A stretch of DNA of 51,549 nucleotides from Peptococcaceae bacterium UBA2264 (GTDB taxonomy: Bacteria > Bacillota > Desulfitobacteriia > Desulfitobacteriales > Desulfitobacteriaceae): the NCBI GenBank assembly GCA_002347475.1, contig DDXI01000068.1, positions 1-51,549 of the forward strand, written 5' to 3'. The position numbers and the translations under genes are program-made. Below, piece after piece: positions 16,788 through 46,344 of this stretch (the stretch's first letter is position 1; every line of letters starts with the position of its first letter). The notes below the pieces were generated by a model that was given only the letters and a program-made list of their open reading frames with translations, was not told the origin of the DNA and made no database searches.

Positions 16788-16847
16788 TCCCTTCCGGTAA
16801 AAGCAGATCGTTCATCTCATATTACCGAAGTAATAATAGAAATGGGG

Positions 16848-28696: not shown

Positions 28697-28733
28697 GACC
28701 GCCTGGAACGAAAGTTTTAGGCGGTTTTTTTTT
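28697..28733 (+). terminator. Rho-independent terminator of pilA
   Basis: accgcct...aggcggt hairpin followed by a run of nine T. Confidence 0.8.
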
Positions 28734-29280: not shown

Positions 29281-29329
29281 TAAAAAGGGGCCGTACCGAA
29301 ACTAACAAGTTTCAGCACAGCCCCTTTTT
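29281..29329. terminator. Bidirectional hairpin terminator downstream of the DUF5658-like gene
   Basis: Outer stem aaaaggggc/gcccctttt and inner stem gaaact/agtttc, with A/T tracts on both sides. Confidence 0.65.
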
Positions 29330-29351
29330 ATGCCTATTTAAGCCATTATGG

Positions 29352-29696
29352 TCAGGCAGCAATCTTTAAAATCCAAAGGACATGAAACATTAAGACTATT
29401 GTATAGACGATCAGAATTAGCCCCAAGGAATAATTTACAAACCTGCGTGATCTATTCTTTAACTGCCAAAATATAACTCCGACAACAACCGGTAAAGCCA
29501 GCTTGACTGCCATAAAGCCACCCGAGCTTTTGGTTACCAGTAATTGCATCAGGGGATTCACTTCCTTTATTGTTTTGAGGCCTAATCCCCAAAGGGTTAA
29601 TCCTCCGTCAATAGCACTGAGTATAAATAAAGTTGCCAAAGCAAGGAGGAGCTTTTTATCTGCAGTAATATTTTTTGTTGGAAACATAATAAACAA
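29352..29696 (-). CDS. Small polytopic membrane protein (DUF5658-like)
   Basis: 'LSAIDGGLTLWGL...EVNPLM' pattern and 3-4 TM helices. Confidence 0.5.
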   Translation of the reverse strand: MFIMFPTKNITADKKLLLALATLFILSAIDGGLTLWGLGLKTIKEVNPLMQLLVTKSSGGFMAVKLALPVVVGVIFWQLKNRSRRFVNYSLGLILIVYTIVLMFHVLWILKIAA

Positions 29697-30193
29697 AAGA
29701 CTCCTTACATTCTATTGTCGACAGTAACAATGCTGCACCTTTTCAACACATTTCGGCTGCACTTCCGATTCTTATTCTTATATCCTCAGTACATAAAACA
29801 ATACCTGCTGTTCAAAACAATGGCGGTTTTGCACCTCAGATGAATTATAATCAGCCATCATTATTCTGTTAGGCATGATGCTCGTTCCATCCTGCCGGAG
29901 TATTCACAATCCTTGTATTATCTTAATCATTTTCAAAGAAATATAATTCCTTATCTTTAAGACCTATAATAACTTACCCGCAAGGTCAGCATCTCAGCCG
30001 GTCCTGCGGGTCCGTTTTATTGTGATTCTCCCTTGACTCGCAAGGTTCACTATGATTCAGATACCATTCCAAAGCCTTAATTCGTTGCTGACCCAGGTTT
30101 TCCAGAAAAACCAGCACTATCCAAGGGCCCCCAATACAATTATTCAAACATGGATAATTTCATAATATTCTATTGCCCTTAAGTCATGATAAT

Positions 30194-31090
30194 TTAATTT
30201 GTCGTCACTGTAACGGTTCCTGTTGTAACGGTATCGTCTGCCGAGTCTGTGACAGTTGCCGCAAATTTCATTTTCTTATTTGCTCCGCTGGGCGAGTTCC
30301 ATGTAATCGAATTACCGCTGACACTTGGCGCATTGCCTTCAGAACTTATAACTGTAATTTCATAAGAATACGGAGCTGTTCCACCAGCAGCATTAGCTGT
30401 ATAAGTATACGTAGTCCCTTTAGGAACAGTAGTATTCGGAGTATTTAATAAGGCCAGTACTTCTTCTTCCTCTTCTTCTGAAGGCGGCGGGGCCGCAGGA
30501 CTTTCAGCTGATTCGAACGGAGGCGGATTATAATTATACTGAATTGATGCAAATTCACTGCTGTCAAAACTGCCTGCGCCAATTTGAATCTCATCGTCAG
30601 TAATAATATTGTTCAGCAACACTTCCGTCGCATAAGACTCGGTTTTTCCCTTAAGCGTAATTCCCAGAAAGTATTTGCCGCCGCTTTTTCTTAAACTGAA
30701 AAAAATGTCTTCCACCTCAGCATCGGAAATATCACTGAAAGCGGCAGCACTGCCCTTGCGTATACCGCTATCGCTCAGAAAGACAAAATTATCTGCATCA
30801 TGATCATCATCTAAACCAAGGGCAGCTATTTCATCACTGCTGGCAAAAGAATCGTTACCCAAGTCAATATAGCCGATGTTTCTGAATTCGTCTGTCAAGG
30901 TGTAGGATGCCAGACGCAGACTGGACTGTTCCTTCATTGCTGCTGAACCTTTGCTGAAGGAATTCGCATTATAGCTGAAAATCGACATACCCATAGCCGT
31001 GACAATCCCAAGAATTGCTAAGGAGACCAGTATTTCCACCATTGTGAATCCATCCTCATTATCCTTAGAAAATAAATTCCATATCTTCAA
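30194..31090 (-). CDS. Minor pilin with acidic linker and C-terminal Ig-like domain
   Basis: TTG start follows GGAGG. It has the prepilin motif 'DG/FTMVEILVSLAILGIV', a 'PPPSEEEEEEV' linker, and a C-terminal 'ANAAGGTAPYSYEI...TVTVTTN' Ig-like pattern. Confidence 0.75.
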   Translation of the reverse strand: MKIWNLFSKDNEDGFTMVEILVSLAILGIVTAMGMSIFSYNANSFSKGSAAMKEQSSLRLASYTLTDEFRNIGYIDLGNDSFASSDEIAALGLDDDHDADNFVFLSDSGIRKGSAAAFSDISDAEVEDIFFSLRKSGGKYFLGITLKGKTESYATEVLLNNIITDDEIQIGAGSFDSSEFASIQYNYNPPPFESAESPAAPPPSEEEEEEVLALLNTPNTTVPKGTTYTYTANAAGGTAPYSYEITVISSEGNAPSVSGNSITWNSPSGANKKMKFAATVTDSADDTVTTGTVTVTTN

Positions 31091-31105
31091 TTCTAATCCT
31101 CCTTC

Positions 31106-31480
31106 CTATTGTGCCGGATTGATTGCCGAAGATACATATACTTTGAAGGTTTCATCTAAGTGAAAAGCGCTGGATTCCTTGTCCATACGAAAACCGGAAA
31201 CTGTAAAATCCGGAACATCTGTTGTGCTTGCCCACGAAATGCTTAAATCTTCTGCTGCAGGAAGAGGACTGACAGCATAAGGATCTTTCGTCCCCAGAAA
31301 ATCTTCCAGATCTGCCTGGATCTCATAATTATTTTGCATATAATCTTTGCTGGCAAACAAGGTTTGCCTGGCAAAGCGTATACCGGCATACAGGGCCACG
31401 GCAATAATACCAATCAGGGCTATAGAGATGATTATTTCAATTAAGGTAAATCCTTGTTGATTCCTTATTCTTTCTTTCAT
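31106..31480 (-). CDS. Minor pilin (prepilin-type N-terminal cleavage/methylation domain)
   Basis: 'NQQG/FTLIEIIISIALIGII' motif, with the start at the ATG after AGGAG. Confidence 0.75.
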   Translation of the reverse strand: MKERIRNQQGFTLIEIIISIALIGIIAVALYAGIRFARQTLFASKDYMQNNYEIQADLEDFLGTKDPYAVSPLPAAEDLSISWASTTDVPDFTVSGFRMDKESSAFHLDETFKVYVSSAINPAQ

Positions 31481-31484
31481 CCTC

Positions 31485-32729
31485 TTACTCCTCTTCCCAA
31501 TAAGCAAACTGGATAGATTCAAGGCGGATCGGATTGGAGTCACTGGGAGTTGCAGAAGTGATCTGCACATTTGCATCAATATCTACTGTTTTGCAATATA
31601 ATCCGCCATATAAATGTGTTTGCGGATTCTTCATATCCACCTTGGCTTCAGGCCCAATAATATACCCGTAAAACTCACCGTTGACATCGAGATTCATATG
31701 GGAGTTATCAGCCAGATAGACTCTGATTCTGTCGGAATCTGCAGGTGCTCCTATTGACATATGAGGTGAGCTCAAGACTAAATCGTAATCATCTTCATCT
31801 TCACTGGTGGAGTCGTCGATTACATGGATTTCTATATTTCCACTACCGCTTAAAGTGACATCGCCATTAATTTCAAGTGAGTCTTCCACAATAAGCATCA
31901 GGTTATTGTTCCCTGTAATCTCAATATCACTGAGAGAAGAAGTACCTGACAGCCAGACAACCATCCAGGGATCTGAAGGTGAAGTGTCGTCATAGACCAT
32001 ACTCACCTCATGCGTGTCTTCATCTTCCTGCTTCTCAAAATCAGCATTACTGGTATCAATTGTCAGCAAGGGCAGGTCATGACCGTCAACACCGCCGGAA
32101 AATATAGAGGATACCTCCACGAGCGGAGCAAGCGGGTCAGCTTCAGTCAGATTGCTCTCAACATCACTGAGATCGACCTCACTGATTTCCGGGTTAAATA
32201 TCACATTTTCATTGGCATATGGCCTAAACTCTGTGTCATAACTAGAATTTTTGAAGACGATGGTTCCTCCCGAGCCGATATCATCGTTTAAATACCCCAA
32301 TTGGATATCTTCCATGGGATCCTTAGTGAATATAACATATTGCATTTTGGTATTCGGATTGTACTTTAATACTGCTTTGACTTCCTCCTCAGCATTTTGG
32401 TAGGTTCCTGTTGATACCACTTTAAAATCATCACCAGTACGCTCGACACTGACAACAAAACTGCCATCGCCAAAGTCTGTAGCATCTGTTGTATGCGGAG
32501 TTGTGAAATCATTCCAGTATTCCTTGTCAATAGTCAACAACCGGTGAATCATGGTATCCGCACCGGCCCGGGCGATATAGTAAGCCTTCATGTTTTTGGT
32601 TTGGTCAATGGTTTGCCTGCTCTCCGACTGGCTCAAAGCAACCATACCGGTAACCAGGATTACCCCCACAACCATTAAAAGCAGGGTGGCTACCAGGGCT
32701 GCCCCTTTTTCATTCGTCGCTTTTTTCAA
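31485..32729 (-). CDS. PilX-like pilus assembly / minor pilin-associated protein
   Basis: It has a 'KGAALVATLLLMVVGVILVTG' PilX_N-type hydrophobic N-terminus. The TTG start was chosen after GGAGGGAG; the ORF stays open to 32744. Confidence 0.6.
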   Translation of the reverse strand: MKKATNEKGAALVATLLLMVVGVILVTGMVALSQSESRQTIDQTKNMKAYYIARAGADTMIHRLLTIDKEYWNDFTTPHTTDATDFGDGSFVVSVERTGDDFKVVSTGTYQNAEEEVKAVLKYNPNTKMQYVIFTKDPMEDIQLGYLNDDIGSGGTIVFKNSSYDTEFRPYANENVIFNPEISEVDLSDVESNLTEADPLAPLVEVSSIFSGGVDGHDLPLLTIDTSNADFEKQEDEDTHEVSMVYDDTSPSDPWMVVWLSGTSSLSDIEITGNNNLMLIVEDSLEINGDVTLSGSGNIEIHVIDDSTSEDEDDYDLVLSSPHMSIGAPADSDRIRVYLADNSHMNLDVNGEFYGYIIGPEAKVDMKNPQTHLYGGLYCKTVDIDANVQITSATPSDSNPIRLESIQFAYWEEE

Positions 32730-32877
32730 ATGATCTCCCTCCAATCAAGGAATTATGGTATCAGACAACTCTAAGTGCAGGATTTATAAGAATCAACTCA
32801 AGTCTTATCCTTCCCGGGTCATTGGACAGTTAAATTACTTCCGGACAACAGCAATTCAACTGACGCCAATGCAATTA

Positions 32878-33621
32878 TTAATTGCCGCTATTCTTTTTGA
32901 TATTTGTCAGGTCTTCTTCCAGCATATCTGCTCGCAGATTCTTAATACTGCGGTCCTTGACCCGGCTCACCTGTTTTTGCGTCATCCCCAGCTTTTCAGC
33001 CACTTGCTGCTGAGTCATATCCCGATAGAAAAGCAGGTGAATAACTTTCTGTTGAATGTCTGTCAATTTCTTGAGGGCCTGGTTGAGAGTCAGCTTGTCT
33101 TCGATAGGCAAACGGAAGGTATTGTATACTGAACTATGAATCTTGCTGGTGTCAATCTCATCAAAGCTCACTATCCCGGCCTTCATAACCTCACTCACAC
33201 TCTCCTCTTTAATATTCAGTTCGCGAGCTATGTGGGCGGTTGAGGGAACGTCTCCATGGATCTTGGCATACTCTTCGACCACTTTGTCCACCTTATACTG
33301 GAGCTCGACGATGCAGCCCGGGCGGTAATAGGAGGCTTGCTTGCGCACCAGATGCCTGACCTCACCCTTGATGGCATGAGAAGCATAAGTAACGAAGCTT
33401 GTCTCTCTGCTTGGGTCATAACTAATCAAAGCTTTCATCAGCGCAAGGTTTCCCGTCTGCAAAAGATCATCTTTGGCATACCCTCCGCCATAAAGGCGAG
33501 CAAAATAGTGGATTAGACCTGCAGCAGATTTCACAACCTCCTGCAGGGTATCTTCATCCTTGTGTTGATAATAATTGTGAACAGCAACATCCAACGATTG
33601 GGTACGGTGGGACATTTCCAT
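32878..33621 (-). CDS. Sigma-70 family sigma factor of the SigB/SigF/SigG (group 3) type
   Basis: Region 2 reads 'DDLLQTGNLALMKALISYDP...FVTYASHAIKGEV'. Region 4 has the HTH 'MTQQQVAEKLGMTQKQVSRVKDRSIKNL'. Length is 247 aa. Confidence 0.85.
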   Translation of the reverse strand: MEMSHRTQSLDVAVHNYYQHKDEDTLQEVVKSAAGLIHYFARLYGGGYAKDDLLQTGNLALMKALISYDPSRETSFVTYASHAIKGEVRHLVRKQASYYRPGCIVELQYKVDKVVEEYAKIHGDVPSTAHIARELNIKEESVSEVMKAGIVSFDEIDTSKIHSSVYNTFRLPIEDKLTLNQALKKLTDIQQKVIHLLFYRDMTQQQVAEKLGMTQKQVSRVKDRSIKNLRADMLEEDLTNIKKNSGN

Positions 33622-33958
33622 TCTTCTGCACCTCTAAAAGAGAACAATACATCACGTCTCTCCCCGGAAATAATTCTGATTCTGATCAGTTTCCGGCTTT
33701 GCGGAAAAGCCGACTTAATTTGAGAGTTGATAAAATTAATGAAAGCTGCCTCTATTACTATTCAGATAGATTGTTGTATTAAATATGCAGATATGCACCT
33801 TTCTGTTTGAATATTGGTAAGTTCATTTACTTCCATTTTACCAAGCGGAAAGGTGCTATCTCTGCCATTATACAATATTGTTTTACTAAAACTTGATCAC
33901 CGACAGGTTTGGAGATATTTTTTAATGCATAAGATGAGTTTGATATATGCCTGAACCC

Positions 33959-34795
33959 TTAATTGAAGAGATCAGCCTTACCGTAACTATTCTGGATCGT
34001 CCAGGCATTAAAGGGATCCAGCCCCTGGTCAACCTTCTCCACAGCATAGAAAGCCAAACTGAGGGTTGCTTTCTGATAGTTTTCATTACTGGCTTTTTGG
34101 ATGGTAACTTCCTCAATGGCAATTTTTCGGTTCAGCTTTTCCAAGCCGGCAATAACAGCTTTGATCTGAGTGTAACTGCCCTGAATTTCCAGTGTGGCAG
34201 GCACCCTGAGTATGGCATCAGCCGGTAATGTCTTGGAATCAGCCTTATTGTCCTTCTTGGTCTCCGTACTGCTCTCAGTTGCTGCTGTTGTACCTGCCTG
34301 ATCAGCTCCGGCTGCATTGATCTTCTTGGCTAAACTGAGAAGCGGATATTCCTGCAGTACCAAATTAGTATTTTTTTTCTGTTGGGGTACTGCTCCTACC
34401 TCCGGATCATCGAAGGTAATCATTTGAGCCACAGCTCCGCTATTCCCAATGATACCCTCCAGCATCACCACATAGCGGTCCTTGTAAGGATAAACCTTGG
34501 GAAAAAACCCGGCTGTATTCTTGATAGTCTTGGCCAGAGCCACCTCATAATCCTGGCTGATCTGGAATTCATTGGCCAGATCACTTTTGGCTTGGGCTAC
34601 TTTGGCATCCATCTGGGTTTTCTCGGTTTTCAGTTTTTGGGCTACTGCATTCAAAGGCCGATAAAGAAAATAATAACTTAAAACTATCAGGACGAAAACA
34701 GCTAGTCCGACAAGTAGTTTTTTATCCCTTTCAGTAGCTTTCAGACGCAGGGATTTAAGATTATTCTTATTATATTTCAATTTGGGCAGCTTCAT
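33959..34795 (-). CDS. pilO: PilO-like pilus assembly protein
   Basis: It has a single N-terminal TM helix followed by a coiled coil. Its start overlaps the pilN stop (ATGA), and the call rests on synteny after pilM-pilN. Confidence 0.6.
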   Translation of the reverse strand: MKLPKLKYNKNNLKSLRLKATERDKKLLVGLAVFVLIVLSYYFLYRPLNAVAQKLKTEKTQMDAKVAQAKSDLANEFQISQDYEVALAKTIKNTAGFFPKVYPYKDRYVVMLEGIIGNSGAVAQMITFDDPEVGAVPQQKKNTNLVLQEYPLLSLAKKINAAGADQAGTTAATESSTETKKDNKADSKTLPADAILRVPATLEIQGSYTQIKAVIAGLEKLNRKIAIEEVTIQKASNENYQKATLSLAFYAVEKVDQGLDPFNAWTIQNSYGKADLFN

Positions 34796-35352
34796 TGGGC
34801 AGCCACCTCCTTAAGATCGCATAACAGGCTAAAATTATAGGAATCTGAATCCTTGTTTTTGGTTACAGAATTAACGTGGACCCTGTTAAACAGACCAGTT
34901 GCCTCCAGGTTATGGCTAAATTCAGCCGCTGTCGTCCAGGCAGGAGCGTTTCCTTCCAGTTTAAGCTGTGTTTCTTCCAGGCCTAAATTCCTTAAACTGG
35001 CAGCAGCAGGGCAGGCATTCTGGATCTTGTCCAAAAATTCCGTGCTAACCCGGTCGCTAAGCGCAACTTTTTGTCCGGCCTTAGTCAATTCAGCATCATA
35101 TTTTATCATACTCTGGCTGGCTGTTTTTTTGGCGTCGATCACTGCTAACCTGGTCTTGACATCCGGCGAATTCAGGAATTTCTCACTATTTTGAATACTG
35201 GTGTACATATACAAGATTCTAAGACCCAAAATACCGTAAAACAATGCTATTACCAGGATTACTCCCAAAACAATTTTACGGGTTTTTTTGGTTTTTTTCT
35301 GCAATTGCTCTTTTTCTTTAGTAAAAGTGGAAAAAAAGTTAATATCATTCAT
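34792..35352 (-). CDS. pilN: PilN-like pilus assembly protein
   Basis: 'INFFS...' N-terminus, one TM helix, and the gene follows pilM. The start was chosen at the ATG after AGGTGA. Confidence 0.7.
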   Translation of the reverse strand: MNDINFFSTFTKEKEQLQKKTKKTRKIVLGVILVIALFYGILGLRILYMYTSIQNSEKFLNSPDVKTRLAVIDAKKTASQSMIKYDAELTKAGQKVALSDRVSTEFLDKIQNACPAAASLRNLGLEETQLKLEGNAPAWTTAAEFSHNLEATGLFNRVHVNSVTKNKDSDSYNFSLLCDLKEVAAQ

Positions 35353-35366
35353 ATCATCACCTGCTC

Positions 35367-36398
35367 TCAAAGCCTGATTAACGCCCCGGCGGCGTTGACA
35401 ATAGTACCCAGGGCGGGCTGATTATCCTGTAGTTGAATTGTATTGAGCCGCTGCAACTGTTGGACTTCAAAACTCAGTCCCCGAGCCAGATAGGGAGCCA
35501 ATCCGGTCAGCGGAGCCCCTCCGCCCATCAAGTAGATTTTTTTCAGAGCCTTACCGCCGCTGCGGCTTTGGAAATACTGCACTACTTTACGCAGTTCTTC
35601 CAATAAATCACCATATAAAGGTCTAATTGCTGTCAGGATTTCATTGTCTTCCTGAATACTTGTTCCAGACAGATATTCCAGCTTTTTATTTTCCGCCTCT
35701 TCTTCAGACATGGTAAGCAGGCTGGCCAGCCGGCTGTCAATCACTTTGCCACCAAAACCGATAGCCCGGAAGAAATCCAGACTCCCCTGGGATAACAGAT
35801 AAATCATACTGCCTGAATAGCCAATATCCAGAAGAATATAACTTTCTTCCTCTAGGCTGTCCCCATTAATTATGGGCTGTCCGCTGAAAAGTTTGGAGAT
35901 CACATTAGGGTGAATATCCAGAGCCACAGGTTCCAGCCCCAGGTCTTCCAGCAGGTTTAAATAATTCTCGGCTATTTCCCTGTTCAGCACTGCAACCCTG
36001 ACTTTAACCTTTTGTTGGCCATTCTCCTCAAACTCGGCAATTTTCCTGTACTCGACCAGATCGCCTTCAGAAATCCCGAAATATTGGGTAATCTCGCTGT
36101 TAATCATAGCCGTCAATTCCTGGGGATCTCCCGCCGGAATTGTGAATTCACGGATAATCACACTGTTGGCGTTAATAGTAATAATCACCTTGCGTGAAGA
36201 GACAGCGATCCTGTCCAGTGCAGTCTGCATGGCCAGGCTGAGAGCTTCCTGATTGGTAATTAAACCGTCTTTGATAGTTCCCCTGGTAAGCTCAACTACG
36301 GTGCTGTTGAATATTTTGACAGTTGTACCACTTATTTGTCCTTCCACTAAGTGCAGATTCCTGGTTCCAATGTCAAAAGCCAGATATGTATTTGACAA
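35367..36398 (-). CDS. pilM: Type IV pilus assembly ATPase-like protein PilM (actin/FtsA fold)
   Basis: It has 'LAFDIGTRNLHLV' and 'LLDIGYSGS' phosphate-binding-type motifs, and the 343-aa length fits. Confidence 0.85.
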   Translation of the reverse strand: MSNTYLAFDIGTRNLHLVEGQISGTTVKIFNSTVVELTRGTIKDGLITNQEALSLAMQTALDRIAVSSRKVIITINANSVIIREFTIPAGDPQELTAMINSEITQYFGISEGDLVEYRKIAEFEENGQQKVKVRVAVLNREIAENYLNLLEDLGLEPVALDIHPNVISKLFSGQPIINGDSLEEESYILLDIGYSGSMIYLLSQGSLDFFRAIGFGGKVIDSRLASLLTMSEEEAENKKLEYLSGTSIQEDNEILTAIRPLYGDLLEELRKVVQYFQSRSGGKALKKIYLMGGGAPLTGLAPYLARGLSFEVQQLQRLNTIQLQDNQPALGTIVNAAGALIRL

Positions 36399-36440
36399 AC
36401 ATATTCCTCCTTTGTCTCAGTATTTATCTCTCCCTGTTTT

Positions 36441-37664
36441 TTAGCCGACAGTAGAGTATACTTTAAACATTGCCATAGCAATAGAAATAACTATAAAGCC
36501 AACAATGACCGCCATTAGGACAATCAGAAGCGGTTCAAAGATCGCCAGCATACGCTGTATAGCTACATCCGCTTCCTCGTCATAATAAACAGAAGTCTTG
36601 TCCAAAATCTCTTCCAGGGATCCTGATTCTTCGCCGATATTGATCATGGAGTAGATCATGGCCGGAAATATTCCTACTCTCCTGATAGCCTGAGAAAGAC
36701 TGGAGCCTTTGCTCATGTCTTCCTTGGCACCAAGCAGGCCGTCAGTGACAACTTTATTTCCCAGTACCTTGGAGGTTATATCTATACAGTTCAGGAGCGG
36801 TATCCCGCTGCTCAGCAGAATAGACAAGGTCCGGGTAAAACGGGCGGAGATAACCTTGATCGCAACGTTTTTAAACATAGGTATTTTTAACTTGGCTCCA
36901 TCCCAGCTCAGTCTGCCCTGTTCAGTCTTGATGTATTTGTTCCAGGCATAAACCAAGGCAGCCAGGCCCAGCAGAATAAGATACCAGAAATTTGAGAAAA
37001 AATTGCTCATGCCAATTAGAATCCGGGTTGGCAAGGGCAGAGACACTCCGCTGCTTTCAAATAAGCCGATAAAGGTCGGCAGAACGAAAGCAAAAAGTAT
37101 CATAACAACCAGAACGGTAACAATACTGAGGATAATCGGATAGATCATGGCAGAAATAAGTTTGGACCTAAGTTTTCGTTCCTTGTCGAAGTGCTCAGCC
37201 ATTTTCTGGAGCACCATATCAAGTTTACCGCTGGCTTCACCGGATTCCACCATATTAATCAGTATTGTCGGGAAAGCTTCGCCTTGCTTGCGCATAGCCT
37301 CAGAAAGTAGATCCCCTTTCTGAACAGTCTCATAGACTTTGAGGACGACAGACTTGCATTTCTTACTCTCGGTCTGCTGATAAATGACATCGAGGGCTTT
37401 GATAACAGTTACCCCGGCCATGAGCAGAACATAAAACTGACGACAAAATATAGCCAAGTCTTTAAGACTCAGTTTATTAGAGGTAGTTCTACCAAGAGAA
37501 GTCAAGAAAGTCATATTTACAGGTTGACGTTTTTGACTGACATCCAGACAAAAAAGCTGGCGTTCCTTAATTGCCTGATAAAAACCCTGTATGTTCTCCG
37601 CTTCCAAGACACCACTGATTATCTGCCCGGAAAAATCCTTGGCCTGGTAATTATACAGAGGCAT
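36441..37664 (-). CDS. pilC: Type IV pilus platform protein PilC (GspF family)
   Basis: 'MPLYNYQAKDFSG' N-terminus, duplicated GspF domains and three TM helices. Confidence 0.9.
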   Translation of the reverse strand: MPLYNYQAKDFSGQIISGVLEAENIQGFYQAIKERQLFCLDVSQKRQPVNMTFLTSLGRTTSNKLSLKDLAIFCRQFYVLLMAGVTVIKALDVIYQQTESKKCKSVVLKVYETVQKGDLLSEAMRKQGEAFPTILINMVESGEASGKLDMVLQKMAEHFDKERKLRSKLISAMIYPIILSIVTVLVVMILFAFVLPTFIGLFESSGVSLPLPTRILIGMSNFFSNFWYLILLGLAALVYAWNKYIKTEQGRLSWDGAKLKIPMFKNVAIKVISARFTRTLSILLSSGIPLLNCIDITSKVLGNKVVTDGLLGAKEDMSKGSSLSQAIRRVGIFPAMIYSMINIGEESGSLEEILDKTSVYYDEEADVAIQRMLAIFEPLLIVLMAVIVGFIVISIAMAMFKVYSTVG

Positions 37665-37928
37665 TAATTGATTCACTTCCTTTCGCTTTTTAAGTTAAAA
37701 AATTATTGCAGATGTATATGAAATAATTTTTTATGTTATTATAGCATAAAATTACCATCAGATTTAAGAATTTATCCAGATAACTTGCCTAAATTCTCAA
37801 ATTCAGTGCTTTTGTCTCTCAACTGAATAGGACTTTGGTAGTTGATTTCATTTATATTTGCCAAGTAAAATAGTACTTTTGTATCTTAACACCCCAGACA
37901 GCCAGATAATTCTCAATATGGTTTAAAC

Positions 37929-38612
37929 TCAGAAGCAATTCAGATACCAGGAAAGCAGTTCCCGGCCGTAAAGAATACTCACAATTATCCCCATTACCAA
38001 AAATGGCCCGAACGGGATCTCTGTTTTCAGATTCCCTTTCCCACCGGCTAAAATCCCCAGCCCGACTGTTCCGCCAATTATGGAAGCCAGAAAAAGAGCC
38101 AAAAAAGTTGCCTTCCAGCCCAAACAAAATCCGATTACCGTCATCAGCTTGACATCCCCGATCCCCATGCCTCCCCTCGACAATATCACGATCAGCAGCA
38201 GCACTGCGCCGGCTGCCACAAAACCGATAAATCTGGCTGGCCAGGATACATCCCGACTGAAAAAGGCCAGCAGGAATCCGGCTGGCAGCAGGCTGAGAAC
38301 ACTCCAATTGGGGATCAGCATAGTCTTAAAATCGATTAAAGCCAGCAGTAACAGAATTGTTACCATAAAGCAATAAGCCCCAGTTTCCACTGTCAGACCA
38401 TAGATTTGAAAAAGCAAGACAAAGAGCCCGGCCGTAAGTAAAGGCAACAGATATGCAGGATGATATTTTTTCTCTTCAGCAGAAAACCAACCGGCGATAT
38501 TTTCCTCCTGCCTGCTTAAAAAGCGCTGCAGAATACCTGCGGAGATGCTGCCGCTCAGCAGACCGCCAAGTATAAATCCTAAATTTGCCATCCAGGCAGA
38601 TTCTATAACCAT
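37929..38612 (-). CDS. pilD: Prepilin peptidase PilD (A24 family, peptidase domain only)
   Basis: It is polytopic, with 'LIDFKTMLIPN' and 'GMGIGDVKLM' aspartate motifs. I saw no N-terminal Cys-rich methyltransferase region. Confidence 0.88.
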   Translation of the reverse strand: MVIESAWMANLGFILGGLLSGSISAGILQRFLSRQEENIAGWFSAEEKKYHPAYLLPLLTAGLFVLLFQIYGLTVETGAYCFMVTILLLLALIDFKTMLIPNWSVLSLLPAGFLLAFFSRDVSWPARFIGFVAAGAVLLLIVILSRGGMGIGDVKLMTVIGFCLGWKATFLALFLASIIGGTVGLGILAGGKGNLKTEIPFGPFLVMGIIVSILYGRELLSWYLNCF

Positions 38613-38833
38613 TCTTTCAGACTCCCTTTTTGTTTTTGATTATAGGACAATTATACGACAATTACCTCAGTTAACCGGGAAAAACATCCCAGTATAACAG
38701 GGAAAAATATCCTGAATATCAGCTTCTGCTGTATAAATTTGTTTATTTTTAGCCTGCTCTATAATAAAATAATGAAGTAATCTGATATTATTATACCTGT
38801 TAATAAGAAATTAAGACAGAATAGGGGTTAAAA

Positions 38834-40513
38834 ATGCAAGGTAAGATGCAAAAGCTGGGAAATCTTCTGCTGGAATCCGAGATCATCACCCAGCAACAGT
38901 TAGAGGAAGCCCTGGATTATCAGGCAAAAAACCCGCAAAAGCTGGGAGAAATCCTGATCGCTAAAGGATTTGTCCAGGAACAGCAAATTCTTAAAGCCTT
39001 GGAATACCAGTACCATATCCCGTACTATGATTTGGGAGATACTGCTATTGAAGCCAATGTGCCCACTTTGATTCCGGAAGGAATAGCCAGGAAACACTCT
39101 TTAATCCCCATCAAACGGGAAAACAACATTTTGACCGTGGTTATGTCTGATCCCCTGGACTTTTACGCTATTGATGATGTCAAGCGGGCTTCAGGGTTGG
39201 ATGTCAAACCGGCTATGGCTACTAAAACCGATATCCTGAATTCCATCGAGCGCTATTATGGCAAGGAAAGCGCTGAAAAAGCCATCGAAGAACTGAAACA
39301 AACCTATGATCTCGCTGATTTTGCCAGTATTGACGATCAATTTGGTGATGAGGTCAGCAATGCACCTGTAGTCCGCCTGGTTAACTCCGTTATCCAGCAT
39401 GCCATCAAAATTAATGCCAGTGATATTCATATTGAACCTCTGGAAGATGCCATGCGTATTCGCTACCGGATCGACGGTGAGCTGCAGGAAGTAATGCGTA
39501 CCTCCAGAGGAGCTCACTCAGCTGTTGTCACCAGAATTAAAATCATGGGAAAAATGGATATCGCCGAAAAACGGCTGCCTCAGGACGGCCGCATCGAAAC
39601 AAACATTGACAACCAAAACGTCGATCTGCGGCTTTCTATTCTGCCTACTGTTCATGGCGAAAAGATTGTTATCCGGGTCCTGGGTATCAGAGACAGCACC
39701 TATCGCAAGGAAGAACTGGGCTTTACACCGGAAAACCTGGAACTCTTTGACCGCATCATCAAAAGTCCCAACGGGATCATCCTTGTTTCCGGACCGACAG
39801 GTTCAGGTAAAACAACCACTCTTTACGCAATAATGCAGGAATTGAACAAACCTAATGTCAATATTATCACTGTTGAGGATCCGGTAGAATACCGGATGGA
39901 GGGCATCAACCAGGTCCAGGTCAATACCAAGGCCGGACTGACCTTCGCCTCAGGTTTGAGAACGATTCTGCGCCAGGACCCCGATATCATCATGATTGGT
40001 GAAATCCGGGATCCGGAAACTGCTCAGATCGCTATCCGCTCAGCTATCACCGGCCATCTGGTCTTAAGCACTATCCATACTAATGATGCTGCTTCCTCAA
40101 TTCTTAGACTGGTAGATATGGGAATTGAATCCTATCTGGTCTCATCTTCAGCAGTTGGTTTGATAGCCCAAAGGCTGGTTCGCAAAATCTGCAGCAAATG
40201 CAAGATGTCCTACCGTCCCAGCCATCAGGAACTGATGCTGCTCAAACTGCGCGAACCTCAGCCAGTCTATAAAGGTTCGGGCTGTCCGGCTTGCAACTAC
40301 ACCGGTTATGCCGGAAGAACCGCTATCCACGAGATCATACCTATCAATAAGGATATCCGGGAATTGATTGACCGACGTTCAACCCCCGATCAAATACGTC
40401 ATGTCGCTGCCAGATTTGGCTATACTTCCCTGCGCGAAAACTGCACTCGTTTGGTTCTGAATGGAGTGACTACTACTGAGGAATTGATCAAAGTTACCTA
40501 TAGTATTGAGTAA
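38834..40513 (+). CDS. pilB: Type IV pilus extension ATPase PilB (GspE family) with N-terminal MshEN-type domain
   Basis: Walker A 'GPTGSGKTT', an Asp box, a His box and a tetracysteine 'CSKC...CPAC'. The N-terminal 'KLG..L' motif is repeated. Confidence 0.95.
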   Translation: MQGKMQKLGNLLLESEIITQQQLEEALDYQAKNPQKLGEILIAKGFVQEQQILKALEYQYHIPYYDLGDTAIEANVPTLIPEGIARKHSLIPIKRENNILTVVMSDPLDFYAIDDVKRASGLDVKPAMATKTDILNSIERYYGKESAEKAIEELKQTYDLADFASIDDQFGDEVSNAPVVRLVNSVIQHAIKINASDIHIEPLEDAMRIRYRIDGELQEVMRTSRGAHSAVVTRIKIMGKMDIAEKRLPQDGRIETNIDNQNVDLRLSILPTVHGEKIVIRVLGIRDSTYRKEELGFTPENLELFDRIIKSPNGIILVSGPTGSGKTTTLYAIMQELNKPNVNIITVEDPVEYRMEGINQVQVNTKAGLTFASGLRTILRQDPDIIMIGEIRDPETAQIAIRSAITGHLVLSTIHTNDAASSILRLVDMGIESYLVSSSAVGLIAQRLVRKICSKCKMSYRPSHQELMLLKLREPQPVYKGSGCPACNYTGYAGRTAIHEIIPINKDIRELIDRRSTPDQIRHVAARFGYTSLRENCTRLVLNGVTTTEELIKVTYSIE

Positions 40514-40566
40514 AGTTGAGTATTATTATTAAAATAACCAAGCAAATTAAGTAAGGAGTGTAACAG

Positions 40567-41646
40567 ATGAATGATACTATCAAAGACTTGTTGCTCAAAG
40601 CCCTGGAGATGAAAGCCTCGGACTTGCATATTACAACTTCCCTGCCTCCCATTTACCGCGTGAACGGTAACCTGATACCGTTGGAAGGTGCCGAACCGCT
40701 GACCCCAGAGGACACGGAGCGCCTGATCTCGCAGTTATTGTTAAGGGAATCCTTTGAGAAACGCCTGGCTGAAAAAGGGGAAGTAGATTTCTCCTATGTA
40801 ATCACCGGTATCAACCGTTTCCGGGTCAATGTCTTCCGCCAGCGTCAGACTCTGGCAGCCGCCATCCGGGTTCTTATGCCGGAAGCCCCCAGTATAGATC
40901 AGTTGGGTTTGCCGGAGGTTTTCAAACCCCTGGCTTTAAAACCCCGAGGCCTGATTCTGGTCACCGGGCCGACTGGATCAGGCAAATCAACAACCCTGGC
41001 AGCCATGGTCAAGCATATCAACAGCTCCCGTAAATGCCATATCCTTACTATTGAGGACCCCATTGAGTATTTACATAAGCACCAAAACTCCATCATTAAC
41101 CAGCGTGAAGTCGGAGATGATACCCTTAATTTTGCTAATGCTCTGAGATCAGCTCTGCGGGAAGACCCGGATGTTATCCTTGTCGGTGAAATGCGCGACC
41201 TGGAGACTATCACTACCGCTCTGACAGCAGCAGAGACCGGGCACCTGGTCTTATCCACCCTTCATACCTCAACAGCTGCACAGACGATCGACCGGGCAAT
41301 CGACGTTTTCCCTCCCCACCAGCAACAGCAAGTCAGGATCCAGCTTGCTGCCGTCCTGCAAGGTATTATTTGCCAGCAGTTACTCCCACGGCTGGACGGT
41401 TCAGGCCGGATTGCCACCCTGGAAATCCTGGTGACCAATGACGCAATACGTAATATGATCCGGGAAAGCAAGACCCACCAGATCGACACGGTTATCCAGA
41501 CCGGCCTGAAAGCGGGCATGACCCCCATGGATCTTGACCTGGCCAATCTGGTCAAACGCAAGCTGGTTTCGCTGGAAGAAGCAACCAACAGGTGCGTTAA
41601 TCCAGAACTCTTTAAAAAGTATCTCAGCCAGCCGTATGTTTACTAA
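40567..41646 (+). CDS. pilT: Twitching motility retraction ATPase PilT
   Basis: 'ASDLHIT', 'GPTGSGKSTT' and 'AIRNMIRE' motifs, and the 359-aa length fits. Confidence 0.95.
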   Translation: MNDTIKDLLLKALEMKASDLHITTSLPPIYRVNGNLIPLEGAEPLTPEDTERLISQLLLRESFEKRLAEKGEVDFSYVITGINRFRVNVFRQRQTLAAAIRVLMPEAPSIDQLGLPEVFKPLALKPRGLILVTGPTGSGKSTTLAAMVKHINSSRKCHILTIEDPIEYLHKHQNSIINQREVGDDTLNFANALRSALREDPDVILVGEMRDLETITTALTAAETGHLVLSTLHTSTAAQTIDRAIDVFPPHQQQQVRIQLAAVLQGIICQQLLPRLDGSGRIATLEILVTNDAIRNMIRESKTHQIDTVIQTGLKAGMTPMDLDLANLVKRKLVSLEEATNRCVNPELFKKYLSQPYVY

Positions 41647-41652
41647 AAACAA

Positions 41653-41690
41653 TGAAACCGCTCTTTTCCGGCCGGAAAAGAGCGGTTTCA
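41653..41690. terminator. Perfect 19-bp-arm palindrome acting as a bidirectional terminator between pilT and the convergent operon
   Basis: tgaaaccgctcttttccgg / ccggaaaagagcggtttca, placed between the two stop codons. Confidence 0.8.
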
Positions 41691-41692
41691 TA

Positions 41693-42904
41693 TCAGTCGG
41701 CTTTTTCCTTGAACCTGGCAATAGCGCGTTTGAAACGGACAGGCCAGAGTCCTTCTTCCTTGCGCAGTAATTCTGCCAGTAATTCCTGAACATACAATTT
41801 GCCGAATTCGTAGATATTCAAAACCAGGATGTCCGAGCTTTTTTCTTCTATTATTACATCCCGGGCCTCAACTGCCAGGCGTTCCAGCAGCCAGCGGGGT
41901 TCGCCCACATCTGCCAGAATGGCTTTCTCCCTCTCCAAAACAGCCTTCTCCATCAGATAAGAGTGTTCAGGCATGTTCTGCAGATCAGCGATTCCAAACT
42001 GTCCGAAATCCAGAATCATAATTTTACCGTCACTGAAAAAGCATATTTCTTTGATATCTTTGTAGAGCTTGCCAAAAACGGCAAGTTTCTTGCTCTTTAA
42101 GCCAAAGTAATCTTCTAAAACCTCAATAAAGATCCATTGCTTGTATCTGGCAGTCAGTTCAGGATCAAGATCAGTCCAGACAGAAGGGACACCCTCGGCT
42201 GGTAAGCCGAACCTGTTAAGAAGAGCCCGGTTGATTTTGCGGGAAGAATAAAACTGCCAGGGCTGTGAGAGATAGTTGATCAGGCAGGGCTCGATTTCCG
42301 CCTCAGTGCTGACCGTAATCGTCTCAAGGAAAAATTCCTCATTGAGCAGAAAACCCCGCTCCCCGGTCTGTTGGAAAAATTGCCTGATTATCCTTACAGT
42401 CAAAGGACTGTGTTCAATCAGATTGTAGCGGGATAAAAACTGGGCAATATCTTCTTCCTCCTGCTGAAGAATTTCCACAGCAGCCAGAATGATATCCTGT
42501 TCCTGCCGGAAAAGCCTCTGCAACAGCTTTTCGCCGCAAACAGGAGCCGCCGCTGCCAGGGCTGCAGCTTCCCGCAGAGCCGGTTGCAGATAGAAATACT
42601 GCAGCAAAGCCCAGATCAGCCGGCTGAGTCCCGGGCTCATCCTGACAGCCAGAATCCGGAGCAGCTTCTGCTTGAGTCCCGGCTCTGGGTTCTGAGTCAG
42701 AGCTATCAAACAGTTTTCCAAATCTTTTTTTCCCAAAGATAAGGCATTTAATTCCAGAGAACGCCTGTTATCCCAGGAAAACGGCGGCAGGACATACCCT
42801 TGGGCCAGCTTGCTGACCAACAGCGCAAATTCCTGTGGAAGCAGTATGTTTTGCCGCAGATGATCGATTGTCTGATTAAACTTTGCCGGAGCAAATAACC
42901 TCAT
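41693..42904 (-). CDS. Soluble 403-aa protein of unknown family, downstream partner of the giant coiled-coil membrane protein
   Basis: SD GGGAGG precedes the start, 67 nt after the upstream stop with no hairpin between. It has no TM helices and I recognised no catalytic motif. Confidence 0.7.
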   Translation of the reverse strand: MRLFAPAKFNQTIDHLRQNILLPQEFALLVSKLAQGYVLPPFSWDNRRSLELNALSLGKKDLENCLIALTQNPEPGLKQKLLRILAVRMSPGLSRLIWALLQYFYLQPALREAAALAAAAPVCGEKLLQRLFRQEQDIILAAVEILQQEEEDIAQFLSRYNLIEHSPLTVRIIRQFFQQTGERGFLLNEEFFLETITVSTEAEIEPCLINYLSQPWQFYSSRKINRALLNRFGLPAEGVPSVWTDLDPELTARYKQWIFIEVLEDYFGLKSKKLAVFGKLYKDIKEICFFSDGKIMILDFGQFGIADLQNMPEHSYLMEKAVLEREKAILADVGEPRWLLERLAVEARDVIIEEKSSDILVLNIYEFGKLYVQELLAELLRKEEGLWPVRFKRAIARFKEKAD

Positions 42905-42971
42905 GCCTGCCTCCCTGTATCCAATATCTTTTTATAGATGTTATATGTTCTTTCTTCATTATGTTGAATAC

Positions 42972-45900
42972 TTATTTGGCAACTGCTTTTTGCAGGGCTT
43001 CGACTGACTCCCGGATACTCTCCAGTACATTGGCAAGCCGCAAAGTGACTTCGCCCAAGCCTTTGTCAAAGTCCTCAAAGGTCCGGCTGATACCTTCATC
43101 GATCTGGTTGGAGAACTCCCGGACAGATTCCCGCAGATTTGTGGAAAGGTCGGCAACATCCAGATTGATTTCCTTGGCATACAAGCCAATGTTGCGGGAA
43201 TGCTCGTCCATATAGCCGACCAGATCCTTGATACCTTTATCAAAAAAGTCCAGGGCACTGCCGGAACTGTCGGTCAGGCGGCCGATAATCAGCTCTGTCT
43301 GGGCAGAGAAGTTGGCAAAAATCTTTTCCATATTGAAATCCATTTCATCCAGTGTCTTGGTAGACTGTTCTCCTATTCTGGTGAAGTAAGAGTCGTACAT
43401 TTCTTTCATAGCTTCGGTCTCTGTGGTTAGCTTTTCTACAATTTCTATACTGTTAGCCATCGCCGTCCGCATCCCGGCAGCCAGATTCTCACCCAAAGCG
43501 TCGATCGATTTGTCCATTCTTCCCGCCAGATCGCTGTAAAGCTGGGCAGCCCGGTGATTGGTCTGTTCCAGGATCCGGCCGCCGACCAAAGACACTTCAG
43601 CAGAAGCCTCAGCCAGCTGGGCAGCTGTTTGAGCATTAGAGCTGAGTACTTCCTCCAGGCTGCTGTGGAACTCTTCCGCAGCAACCAGGCTATTGGCCTT
43701 CAGTCTCTCTCCGTGTTCAGCCAGGGTCTGATCCAATACGCTGATAATTCCTGCCACTTTGTTCTCCAGCTCGGTGCTCTGAGCCTTACGGGCAGCTTCC
43801 AGATTGGTACTCAGCTGAGCATATTCATGCAATATCCTGTCCAGTTCAGCGGCGACCCGGCTGATAACTATCTCACTATTCTGTTCCAGATTGCCTGTCA
43901 GGGCACCTATTCGCTGCTGCATGGTTTCCACCTGGCCGGCCAAAGTACTATAGGAAGTCTCCACTCTTTCCGCCAAGCTGTTATAAACAGTTTCTACCCT
44001 TGAAGCCAGGTCACTGTAAAGCAGACCGGTCTCCAGATTGATTTGTTCCAGAACCCGGCTGCCGGCCAGAGACACTTCGGCTGTAGCTGCCGATAATTTA
44101 TCCACTGTCTGAGAATTGGAGGCCAGTATTTCCTGCAGGCTGCCGCTGTAGACAGCAGCGGCAGCCGTACTTTCAGCCGCCAGCTTTTCGCTGTAGCCAG
44201 CCAGACTCTGATCTATGCCGCCCACCAGTTTTTCCAGTCTTGTTTCCAGCTCAGCACTCTGCCTCACGCGGGCGGTATCTAATTCAGCGCTCAGCTGGGC
44301 ATATTCATGCAATATCCTGTCCAGTTCAGCGGCTACCCGGCTGATAACTGTCTCACTATTCTGTTCCAGATTGCCTGTCAGGGCACCTATTCGCTGCTGC
44401 ATGGTTTCCACCTGGCCGGCCAAAGTACTGTAGGAAATCTCCACTCTATCCGCCAGGCTGTTATAAACTGTTTCTACCCTTGAAGCCAGGTCACTGTAAA
44501 GCAGACCGGTTTCCAGATTGATTTGTTCCAGAACCCGGCTGCCGGCCAGAGACACTTCGGCTGTAGCTGCCGATAATTTATCCACTGTCTGAGAATTGGA
44601 GGCCAGTATTTCCTGCAGGCTGCTGCTGTAGACAGCAGCGGCTGCCGTACTCTCGGCCGTCAGCTTTTCGCTGTAACCAGCCAGACTCTGATCTATGCCG
44701 CCCACCAGTTTTTCCAGTCTGGCTTCCAGCTCGGCACTCTGTTTCGCGCGGGCAGTTTCCAGTTCGGCGTTCTCTTTCTGCCTGGTTGCTTCCAGATCAG
44801 AGCTCAGTCCGCTGAAATCACTCAGCACCCTGTCAAACTCGCCGGCAACGCGGCTGACAGCCGTGTCAATATTCTGCTCCATTGTTCTGGCCAATTCACC
44901 CAGGCCACCCTGGAGGGCAGCCACCTGAGCAATATTGCCTTCCATAAGCTGCAGGGAATGCCGGGCCATAGCATCAGCCTTATCCAGCCCCTGCACGGCA
45001 TATCCTCTCAGTTCTTCAGCAATTGAGCCGGACTGGGAGACTGCCTCCAGGGAGGCCTGCAGAGCCTGAGAAATTTCACTCTGGATTCTTCCGGCTTCCG
45101 CCAAAGCAGCACTGGTTTCCTGAGCAGCAGTTTCCTGGGATATCCTGTTGTTTTCCATACCAGCTAAAATCTTTTCCATTCCGCCAACAATACCTGTCAG
45201 GGACAGGGAGACCTTATCGGCTGCTGCCGCAAAGGCATTCAGCCTATCGGCAGTCAGGGAAGTAACCTGCTCGGTAAAGGTCCGGGCCAGATCCTTCATT
45301 CCATTTTCCTGTTTGTCCAGCACAGCAACTGCCAGTTCGGTCAGTATCTCCGTACCTTGTTTCATGACGGGAGCAAGCTGCAGTTCAATAGCATCCTGAA
45401 ACTGCTTACCCAACACTGGAGCCAGAGTTTCTGTTTCGAAATGATCAAGTCTTTTCCCCAAATCAGCTACGGCTTCCCGGAAAGCCTTACCCTGCTGCTG
45501 CTGGCTTTCCACCAGGACACTGATCATCGTAGCTTCAGTCAGCGGATTCAGCCATTCCGCCATCTGGTACTGAAAATACCAGAGGCTTCGTCTGGTTTTC
45601 TCTAAAACAACCGCATCAGAGAAGCGAAAAATAATAGTGATGAGAAATATCTCAGCCAGGTAAAAGGCCACAAAACTAAGACTGCGGCTTACGACTGCTA
45701 CGGTAACTTCTCCCTTTAGTCCCGAAAGGTTAAGAGCCAGGTAAACTAAAGCTCCGGCAATACCCAGGTAAAACAGGAGCTGCCAAATTCGTTCCAGCAG
45801 TCTCCGGGCGCAGGGAACTGTAATCAGCCTATCCTCGTTGAAATAGGCGGTCACATCCGGGACAACCTCCCCGTGCAGCAAAGTAGTATAATCACGATAA

Positions 45901-46151
45901 TAGTCTTCCCAAGCTGTGATCAGGATCTGATTGCCTGACCCTCTGACCCTATTGAGCAGAAACTCTATCAGGTTCTTCGATCCGCTGGGCATCAGGACCG
46001 AACTCTTGGCAGCCAGCCGGTTTAAACTTTTTCCCAAACCCCTTAAGCACAGCAAATCGTATTTAACATAGAAAATGGCCGCAATAATAATATACAGCAG
46101 CAAAAGCCCAAATAAGACCAGGCCATCTGGTCCGAGTATCAGATCAAGCAT
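42972..46151 (-). CDS. 1059-aa membrane protein: three TM helices (aa ~9-29, ~122-142, ~156-177) followed by a ~870-aa repetitive alpha-helical tail
   Basis: SD GGGGGAGGT precedes the start. Hydrophobic segments occur only at the N-terminus. The rest is Ala/Leu/Glu/Ser/Gln-rich with 'xxxLxxG'-type periodicity and 160-aa tandem repeats. Confidence 0.85.
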   Translation of the reverse strand: MLDLILGPDGLVLFGLLLLYIIIAAIFYVKYDLLCLRGLGKSLNRLAAKSSVLMPSGSKNLIEFLLNRVRGSGNQILITAWEDYYRDYTTLLHGEVVPDVTAYFNEDRLITVPCARRLLERIWQLLFYLGIAGALVYLALNLSGLKGEVTVAVVSRSLSFVAFYLAEIFLITIIFRFSDAVVLEKTRRSLWYFQYQMAEWLNPLTEATMISVLVESQQQQGKAFREAVADLGKRLDHFETETLAPVLGKQFQDAIELQLAPVMKQGTEILTELAVAVLDKQENGMKDLARTFTEQVTSLTADRLNAFAAAADKVSLSLTGIVGGMEKILAGMENNRISQETAAQETSAALAEAGRIQSEISQALQASLEAVSQSGSIAEELRGYAVQGLDKADAMARHSLQLMEGNIAQVAALQGGLGELARTMEQNIDTAVSRVAGEFDRVLSDFSGLSSDLEATRQKENAELETARAKQSAELEARLEKLVGGIDQSLAGYSEKLTAESTAAAAVYSSSLQEILASNSQTVDKLSAATAEVSLAGSRVLEQINLETGLLYSDLASRVETVYNSLADRVEISYSTLAGQVETMQQRIGALTGNLEQNSETVISRVAAELDRILHEYAQLSAELDTARVRQSAELETRLEKLVGGIDQSLAGYSEKLAAESTAAAAVYSGSLQEILASNSQTVDKLSAATAEVSLAGSRVLEQINLETGLLYSDLASRVETVYNSLAERVETSYSTLAGQVETMQQRIGALTGNLEQNSEIVISRVAAELDRILHEYAQLSTNLEAARKAQSTELENKVAGIISVLDQTLAEHGERLKANSLVAAEEFHSSLEEVLSSNAQTAAQLAEASAEVSLVGGRILEQTNHRAAQLYSDLAGRMDKSIDALGENLAAGMRTAMANSIEIVEKLTTETEAMKEMYDSYFTRIGEQSTKTLDEMDFNMEKIFANFSAQTELIIGRLTDSSGSALDFFDKGIKDLVGYMDEHSRNIGLYAKEINLDVADLSTNLRESVREFSNQIDEGISRTFEDFDKGLGEVTLRLANVLESIRESVEALQKAVAK
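43811..44770 (-). repeat. Two in-frame 480-bp tandem repeat units inside the 1059-aa gene
   Basis: At a 480-nt offset I counted about 26 mismatches per 480 nt by eye (~95% identity). More diverged copies flank them on both sides at the protein level. Confidence 0.9.
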
Positions 46152-46344
46152 TCTTTTACCTCCCCCAAATTATCTATACTTTTAATTATATGGCTCTGCC
46201 GCAAGCAGAACAACACTTTTTTTTACAATATTTTCTGCAACTTTCTGAACCACGTTCAATACACAAGGGATGCGCTCTCCAGGCCAGTGCGTTCATGAGA
46301 CTAATAAGCTCATAAACTACTAAAGGAAACTAAAAGTGCGTGAG

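Follow-up and report, generated by a model that had tools for sequence, protein, structure and literature searches.

Zorya is a four-part machine in which anchoring by ZorB and proton flow turn ZorA, whose tail recruits ZorC and the Snf2-related nuclease ZorD. ZorA belongs to the 5:2 motor A subunits of the MotA/ExbB/TolQ/GldL type; its Thr147 and Ser184 form the proton filter and contact Asp26 of ZorB, which has a single transmembrane (TM) helix with a conserved Asp and an OmpA-like peptidoglycan-binding domain. Type I Zorya has been reported mainly from Gram-negative phyla (PMC11946911). Here we describe a two-gene locus in contig DDXI01000068.1 of Peptococcaceae bacterium UBA2264 (the window: the whole stretch of 51,549 nucleotides that was analysed), in which a zorA-like gene for a protein of 1059 amino acids (aa) and a zorC-like gene for a partner of 403 aa adjoin a type IV pilus cluster. 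By sequence and fold comparison the proteins are homologous to ZorA and ZorC; the gene order is that of type I Zorya, the pairing is obligate, and the pair is linked to pilus genes and vertically inherited. We propose, with a probability of roughly 0.55, that the pair, related to ZorA and ZorC but pared down, has become a permanent accessory of a Gram-positive type IV pilus machine, where it would serve as a membrane sensor or anchor with a partner-docking tail.

Hydropathy placed three hydrophobic segments in the 1059-aa protein (aa 1-39, 122-145 and 151-183), giving TM1 at about aa 10-30, TM2 at 122-145, TM3 at 151-183 and a TM1-TM2 loop of about 90 aa that is the equivalent of the membrane-proximal cytoplasmic domain of ZorA. 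This bore out the layout given in an initial annotation of the DNA: TM1, the loop, TM2 and TM3, then a helical tail of about 870 aa. Homologues of the large protein were gathered with a full-length query and from related loci; a word-index search with the N-terminal 296 aa found one protein only. Profile A4 was made from 10 sequences over aa 1-296, with the tail excluded and four distant relatives from related loci added. Against the PDB it matched four E. coli ZorA chains only (E 4e-9 to 2e-8, 39 bits, bias 0.7); the next match stood at E 0.7, and no MotA, ExbB or TolQ chain was found. The match was collinear, with aa 12-254 aligned to ZorA 21-284, and covered TM1, the loop, TM2, TM3 and the first 60 residues of the tail. 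A narrower profile, A2 (aa 1-340, nine close relatives), put three E. coli ZorA chains at the top of the whole PDB at E of about 0.01, and the NCBIfam ZorA1 model was matched by three of ten N-terminal domains (5.7e-5). Judged from these alignments, the 1059-aa protein is homologous to ZorA, so that a likeness first guessed from topology is now backed by sequence.

The PADLOC and NCBIfam ZorA models also matched the 1059-aa protein itself. Whole-protein matches in Pfam, NCBIfam and PADLOC lay mostly in the tail (Apolipoprotein, SF-assemblin, DUF2551 and ZorA tails), and these were treated as compositional until the tail-free N-terminal profile had been run. Pfam MotA_ExbB (PF01618) gave no match at E <= 1 to the window protein or to nine N-terminal domains of its relatives, and models for methyl-accepting chemotaxis protein (MCP) signalling, YhgE/Pip and MotA_ExbB were absent among the Pfam matches of the large protein; the comparisons with these families that had been suggested at the outset thus came back empty. 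A precomputed database entry lists the Pfam match PF28217.1 for this protein (P0025, window 42972-46151). Foldseek, run with an AlphaFold2 (AF2) model of the membrane domain that had a predicted local distance difference test score (pLDDT) of 46, listed TolQ and ZorA chains first at a non-significant E of 2-4, and this list was not counted as evidence. In the A4 alignment, ZorA Thr147 falls opposite Ala134 and ZorA Ser184 opposite a Leu in TM3, in a match that is remote and may be shifted by one residue. Read in this way, the proton filter of ZorA is not kept in the 1059-aa protein.

The tail, with a net charge of -59 and an isoelectric point (pI) of 4.5, has a hydrophobic period of 3.64 residues that is hendecad-like and not that of a heptad (3.5), and this fits the right-handed, non-heptad bundle of ZorA. 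In E. coli ZorA (EcZorA) a tail of 507 aa measures 70 nm, and scaled from that value the window tail would be about 120 nm long. As the initial annotation had stated, it is repetitive: Tandem Repeats Finder reported a 480-bp unit at 43810-44753 in 2.0 copies with 95% DNA identity. The encoded repeats (aa 462-621 and 622-781) are 94% identical, and an older third copy is 48% identical. Repeat copy number varies between close relatives, one of which (P0026, 90-100% identical) has 899 aa, exactly one 160-aa repeat fewer. Across the zorA-like family, whose members range from 547 to 1059 aa, the middle of the tail is variable (about 350 to 870 aa) through gain and loss of 160-aa repeats, and in relatives that are 20-30% identical two segments are still conserved, the tail base (...KQENGMKELAQTF...) and roughly the final 100 aa, with the tip motif ...EQSRSIGLYAKEIN.D..DLS..L..SV.EF...I..GI..TF..FD.GL.EVT.RLA...ESIRESVEAL... 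Constant ends and an elastic middle fit a spacer whose tip binds specifically. A profile of the last 230 aa matched the C-terminus of ZorA at E 9e-6 with the C-termini in register; it also matched apolipoproteins, a compositional effect of 11-residue amphipathic repeats. In Zorya the tail tip is needed for effector recruitment (PMC11946911), and by analogy the tip of the large protein is a candidate docking site for the zorC-like partner.

The partner is linked to ZorC because of a fold comparison and a transitive profile search. Its AF2 model, built with 20 homologues, reached a pLDDT of 81.9 and was mostly alpha-helical with a small beta-sheet, in keeping with the soluble, helical protein described earlier. 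When about 350,000 PDB chains were searched with Foldseek, the top match was 8R68, E. coli ZorC (EcZorC), with probability 1.0, TM-score 0.41/0.42 over 339 columns and E 0.034; the next matches were generic helical repeats at a TM-score of about 0.2. An exhaustive family-profile search of 1.8 billion representatives returned 213 proteins at E <= 1e-3, and among 67 sampled from these, 14 matched Pfam EH_Signature (best E 2e-16) and 19 matched PADLOC ZorC1. One of them, P0173 (profile E 3.6e-8), belongs to a canonical operon (L019), where its gene follows one for a MotB_plug/OmpA protein (ZorB) and is itself followed by a large gene at the position of ZorD. PADLOC ZorC1 also matched the 403-aa protein directly (E 2e-6), as it did 6 of 20 close relatives. 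Pfam, including EH_Signature (PF15611), gave no match to the 403-aa protein itself; profile A1 and the canonical ZorC P0173, used as queries, each found nothing in the PDB by sequence, and a wider profile, A3, reached 8R68 at E 0.27 only. Together, these searches show that the partner is homologous to ZorC in its core domain, by sequence and by fold.

EcZorC needs Glu400 and His443 for DNA binding and defence, and its C-terminal globular domain is needed for DNA binding as well (PMC11946911). In the window protein the Glu position is occupied by Asp307 (codon 41984-41986) and the His position by Ile364 (codon 41813-41815). The pilus-linked clade as a whole had Asp in 53 of 57 and Tyr or Phe in 45 of 57 sampled sequences, with Asp in 102 of 129 full-length representatives, whereas canonical ZorC proteins in the same alignment had Glu in 9 of 10 and His in 8 of 10; two Trp residues, W243 and W257, were conserved in both groups. 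The Asp variant is found in about 100 clusters at 50% identity, so that it represents a sizeable, genuine family rather than an isolated case. Nothing in the partner corresponds to the C-terminal globular domain of the 560-aa EcZorC. The initial annotation had raised kinship with the EH-signature (ZorC-type) family as a guess: the kinship held, through ZorC1, 8R68 and the transitive profile, but the EH residues themselves are not conserved and PF15611 is not matched directly. A distant partner homologue of 539 aa (L007, 8529-10148) has long Ala/Ser/Gly-rich low-complexity inserts internally and C-terminally.

Could both likenesses be fortuitous or compositional, the pair being a generic membrane-anchored coiled-coil protein beside an unrelated helical repeat protein? 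The window proteins alone miss Pfam MotA_ExbB and EH_Signature, tail matches to ZorA models come together with apolipoprotein matches, the Foldseek E for ZorC is 0.034, and profile A1 on its own finds nothing in the PDB. However, the tail-free membrane match is specific, with 39 bits, a bias of 0.7 and four ZorA chains before anything else appears at E 0.7, and the link of the partner to ZorC is independent of it and was reached in three ways (ZorC1, Foldseek and the transitive profile). Moreover, neighbouring genes that match, in identical order, a pair of proteins from a single system would very rarely arise by chance, and we regard an explanation by chance as exceedingly improbable.

Besides the window, about 20 related loci (labels of the form L001) were searched for the remaining Zorya parts. 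No ZorB/OmpA-like open reading frame (ORF) was found in the window or the pilus-linked loci, either by phmmer with canonical ZorB or in the gene lists, and the gene lists of the window and the related loci held no ZorD-like helicase or nuclease gene; the initial annotation had noted both absences. The four-gene operon zorA-zorB-zorC-zorD was not encountered in the window or the pilus-linked loci: only the A-like and C-like genes are present and the flanking genes are pilus genes, whereas the canonical operon L019 has all Zorya parts. Without ZorB, ZorD, the ion-filter residues or the EH residues that define Zorya, the pair should not be filed as Zorya. In the literature searched, which included Zorya papers and a stator-evolution preprint, no account connects pili with ZorA, ZorC or the EH signature or deals with ZorA in the absence of ZorB, and an arrangement that lacks ZorB and ZorD and is embedded among pilus genes is described nowhere there.

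On the other side of the comparison, pilus genes were a recurrent feature. PilB (38834..40513) and PilT (40567..41646), already recognised as neighbours of the pair, are members of a full pilus cluster; the pair is convergent with pilT and has Fe-S cluster assembly genes on its other side. Related loci have the same pilus genes around the pair. Dehalobacter and Desulfosporosinus are the sources of close homologues, and a 28%-identical one stems from a metagenome-assembled genome labelled 'Clostridiales bacterium'. In the co-occurrence check that had been called for, the two genes were adjacent in every locus with upstream sequence, the zorA-like gene (547-1059 aa) always directly upstream of the partner gene. 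All loci with at least 9 kb on both sides have the pair beside pilT/pilB, a prepilin peptidase gene or a pilin gene, and adjacency to pilus genes was seen in the window, L001-L011, L013-L016, L018 and L020. Eight loci (L001, L002, L005, L010, L013, L015, L018 and L020) have a divergent pilin gene that shares the intergenic region of the zorA-like gene and lies about 300 nt upstream of it; in the window, where this region is 46152-46602, the pilin is absent and a NifU-like gene stands in its place. In L002 (11280-14284), pilT is separated from the partner gene by inserted genes for a pyruvate-formate-lyase-like glycyl radical enzyme and the activase of this enzyme, which indicates that the linkage to pilT tolerates insertions.

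Near relatives share 47-54% identity with the window proteins for the pair and 48-61% for PilM/N/O; in distant relatives the values fall to 26-30% and 24-31%, whereas PilB/PilT stay at 60-82%. The pair thus diverges in step with PilM/N/O, which indicates co-inheritance with the pilus cluster. The surroundings of the pair have a normal GC content and no mobile-element marks, and the only mobile or defence-like islet of the window is 25 kb away. Together, these data point to a vertically inherited pilus accessory and not to a mobile defence island.

The type IV pilus often serves phages as a receptor and DNA as a point of entry, and the initial annotation had left the choice between a defence module and a pilus-associated device. 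A Zorya variant placed at the pilus might sense attack there, its ZorC-like protein binding the incoming DNA and host nucleases or restriction systems replacing ZorD. A proven defence system is the ancestor of both proteins or has an ancestor in common with them (PMC11946911), the tail tip and the partner that make up the sensing-to-effector link in Zorya have been kept, and tail length changes between near-identical relatives, as in conflict genes. However, there is no nuclease, helicase or other effector gene in any of the loci, although E. coli defence needs every Zorya gene (PMC11946911), and the Glu and His for ZorC DNA binding have been replaced. The stable pilus synteny, the divergence in step with PilM/N/O and the absence of mobile-element marks around the pair are likewise unlike patchy mobile defence systems. 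We therefore consider a pilus-guarding anti-phage module unlikely; of the two options left by the initial annotation, the context favours the pilus-associated one.

Many bacteria take up DNA by means of type IV pili, and the pair adjoins the gene for the retraction ATPase, pilT, so that the tail and the ZorC-like protein could instead be a competence accessory that receives or protects incoming DNA in the cytoplasm. ZorC binds double-stranded DNA without sequence preference (PMC11946911), which would suit such a task. Against this, comEA, comEC and dprA were not seen in the loci, the EH residues that DNA binding requires have been exchanged, and the partner (403 aa against 560 aa) has no counterpart of the C-terminal globular domain of EcZorC and is acidic (pI 5.6). 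A role in DNA uptake is, in our estimate, quite improbable.

We favour instead the pilus accessory proposed above, which might work as follows. The large protein would assemble as a ZorA-like pentameric membrane ring with a cytoplasmic helical bundle of about 50-120 nm, depending on repeat number, and the conserved tip of this bundle would dock the ZorC-like partner. With no ZorB anchor and with hydrophobic residues at the filter positions, the ring is probably not an autonomous proton-driven rotor. It would more likely be a sensor or anchor in the membrane, placed at the pilus base or close to it, that relays pilus or envelope events along the tail to the partner. There is no nuclease gene in the locus and the Glu and His are replaced, which makes binding or regulation a more likely output than destruction of DNA. 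The partner might handle nucleic acids, or it might control either pilus genes or the sigma factor encoded in the cluster. A sigma-70-family gene (regions 2, 3 and 4) lies at 32878-33621 on the minus strand within the pilus cluster, and is also present in L001, L004, L005, L008-L010 and L020 at 39-67% identity. This sigma factor might be regulated by the pair or act as its partner.

Several points weigh against this proposal. To our knowledge, every 5:2-type A subunit works with a B subunit, and E. coli ZorA that lacks either its tail or ZorB forms no motor (PMC11946911); a ZorB-type partner may be encoded elsewhere in the genome. The AF2 monomer of the membrane domain was poor (pLDDT 46), and the pentameric state of the large protein is deduced from homology alone, just as docking of the partner at the tip is an analogy with Zorya. 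The mildly acidic partner (pI 5.6) gives no support for general DNA binding. One locus, L022, has fatty-acid synthesis genes upstream of the pair and no pilus gene there, and the downstream end of this locus is missing. Finally, the proposed function as a pilus accessory is read from sequence and gene context.

A bolder version of the proposal is that the ring encloses the TM helices of pilins in place of ZorB, with PilN/PilO as an alternative, making it a new 5:2-type machine. Pilins come into question as ZorB substitutes because they share its single-helix N-in/C-out topology and have a conserved acidic residue (Glu5) near the cytoplasmic end, and because most loci have a divergent pilin gene. 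That PilN and PilO might mimic the ZorB Asp finds no support, as their TM helices here carry no acidic residue. We see pilin-in-ring as a long shot. If it were true, the machine would read or drive the membrane pool of pilins during extension and retraction and report through its tail to the partner; as a corollary, Zorya might derive from such a pilus accessory, or the reverse.

Set against type I ZorA (E. coli 8QYD/8QYK; Shewanella 8VVN), the large protein is alike in its three TMs, the TM1-TM2 domain of about 90 aa and the collinear sequence match, in its very long acidic helical tail with non-heptad periodicity and alignable C-terminus, and in the position of its gene directly upstream of a ZorC-type gene. 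It differs in that no zorB follows, in having Ala and Leu for Thr147 and Ser184, in the lack of a MotA_ExbB match, in tail length (about 870 aa against 507 aa in EcZorA) and in its place within Gram-positive-type pilus clusters. The partner shares with ZorC (EH_Signature PF15611; 8R68) the core fold, profile homology, two Trp residues and an acidic residue at the Glu position; unlike ZorC, it has Asp for Glu and Tyr or Phe (Ile in the window) for His, no C-terminal globular domain and no ZorD partner, and it is acidic overall. The A subunits MotA, ExbB, TolQ and GldL have no comparable tail, and, unlike them, the large protein has no B subunit in its locus and gave no direct profile match to their family. 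With the PilM/PilN/PilO alignment complex the pair has in common its location in the pilus cluster and its evolution in step, and its long helical bundle in the cytoplasm, if used for signalling, is reminiscent of PilJ-type chemoreceptors; a likeness of the ZorA tail tip to chemoreceptors has itself been pointed out (PMC11946911). However, the sequences are unrelated to PilM/N/O and to MCP signalling domains, and CheA/CheW-type partners are absent.

As the pair shows, the 'tail plus ZorC' half of Zorya can persist independently: anchor and nuclease are missing from this stable unit, and so are the proton filter and the EH residues. Nature thus provides a setting in which the roles of the tail and ZorC beyond DNA degradation can be studied. 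The pair also adds a conserved, uncharacterised component to Clostridial-type pilus clusters, and bears on the origin of Zorya.

The pair appears to be its own transcription unit, running from a -10 box to a terminator. The ORFs lie on the minus strand 67 nt apart, and the spacer holds no stable hairpin (minimum free energy -5.3 kcal/mol) and no terminator-like site in a scan. The Shine-Dalgarno sequence is GGGGGAGG, 7 nt 5' of the ATG, for the 1059-aa gene and GGGAGG, 5 nt 5' of the ATG, for the 403-aa gene. Between the stop of pilT (41646) and that of the 403-aa gene (41693) stands a terminator hairpin with a free energy of -31 kcal/mol and a z-score of -6.5, equalled in 0 of 200 shuffles. 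The 5' leader (46152-46602; 451 bp) has 33.5% GC against 45.8% in the whole window. The arrangement that the initial annotation had read from the letters was all present: same-strand genes with strong Shine-Dalgarno sequences and a gap free of hairpins, the palindromic terminator shared with pilT, and the AT-rich upstream region of about 450 bp. A sigma-70 consensus scan found no promoter on the correct strand, and a box reading TATAAT(TAA) about 35 nt 5' of the zorA-like start codon was missed by it because the -35 element matches the consensus at 3 of 6 positions only. The same box occurs at an equal distance from the zorA-like gene in the eight loci with the divergent pilin, and it is part of a putative promoter of the pair.

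Table 1. Coordinates of the zorA-like/zorC-like pair, its parts and its flanking features in the window.
Feature	Coordinates	Strand	Basis or remarks
zorA-like gene, 1059 aa	42972..46151	-	ORF; three-TM membrane domain, then long helical tail
Membrane module, aa 1-185	45597..46151	-	Hydropathy; alignment to ZorA residues 21-284
Cytoplasmic tail, aa 186-1059, acidic, helical	42975..45596	-	Composition and periodicity
Two tandem 160-aa (480-bp) repeats, aa 462-781	43809..44768	-	Tandem Repeats Finder and protein comparison
Conserved tail tip, about aa 955-1059	42975..43289	-	Best-conserved tail segment in relatives with about 20-30% identity
zorC-like gene, 403 aa	41693..42904	-	ORF; soluble, mainly alpha-helical with small beta-sheet
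Segment spanning the ZorC EH-signature positions	41813..41986	-	Alignment column statistics
Putative promoter: -10 TATAAT(TAA) 46190-46185, weak -35 TTGTTC 46213-46208, 17-nt spacer	46185..46213	-	Cross-locus comparison
Bidirectional hairpin terminator, common to the pair and convergent pilT	41652..41691	.	Perfect 18-bp stem
Type IV pilus cluster	28200..41646	.	Pfam and ORFs; pilin, minor pilins, PilX-like, sigma factor, PilO, PilN, PilM, PilC, prepilin peptidase, PilB, PilT

Other features of the window were recorded along the way. The region at 13977-17849 has a low GC content (29% at 14-15 kb) and encodes a 406-aa CAP12/Pycsar-effector TIR protein, a PRiA4_ORF3/DUF6933 protein and a serine recombinase. 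This stretch has the appearance of a small islet, mobile or defence-related, with no relation to the pair. Within the pilus cluster, a DUF5658 membrane protein is encoded at 29352-29696 on the minus strand. A second long coiled-coil protein, of 697 aa and with a weak match to Tropomyosin, is encoded at 2006-4099 on the plus strand.

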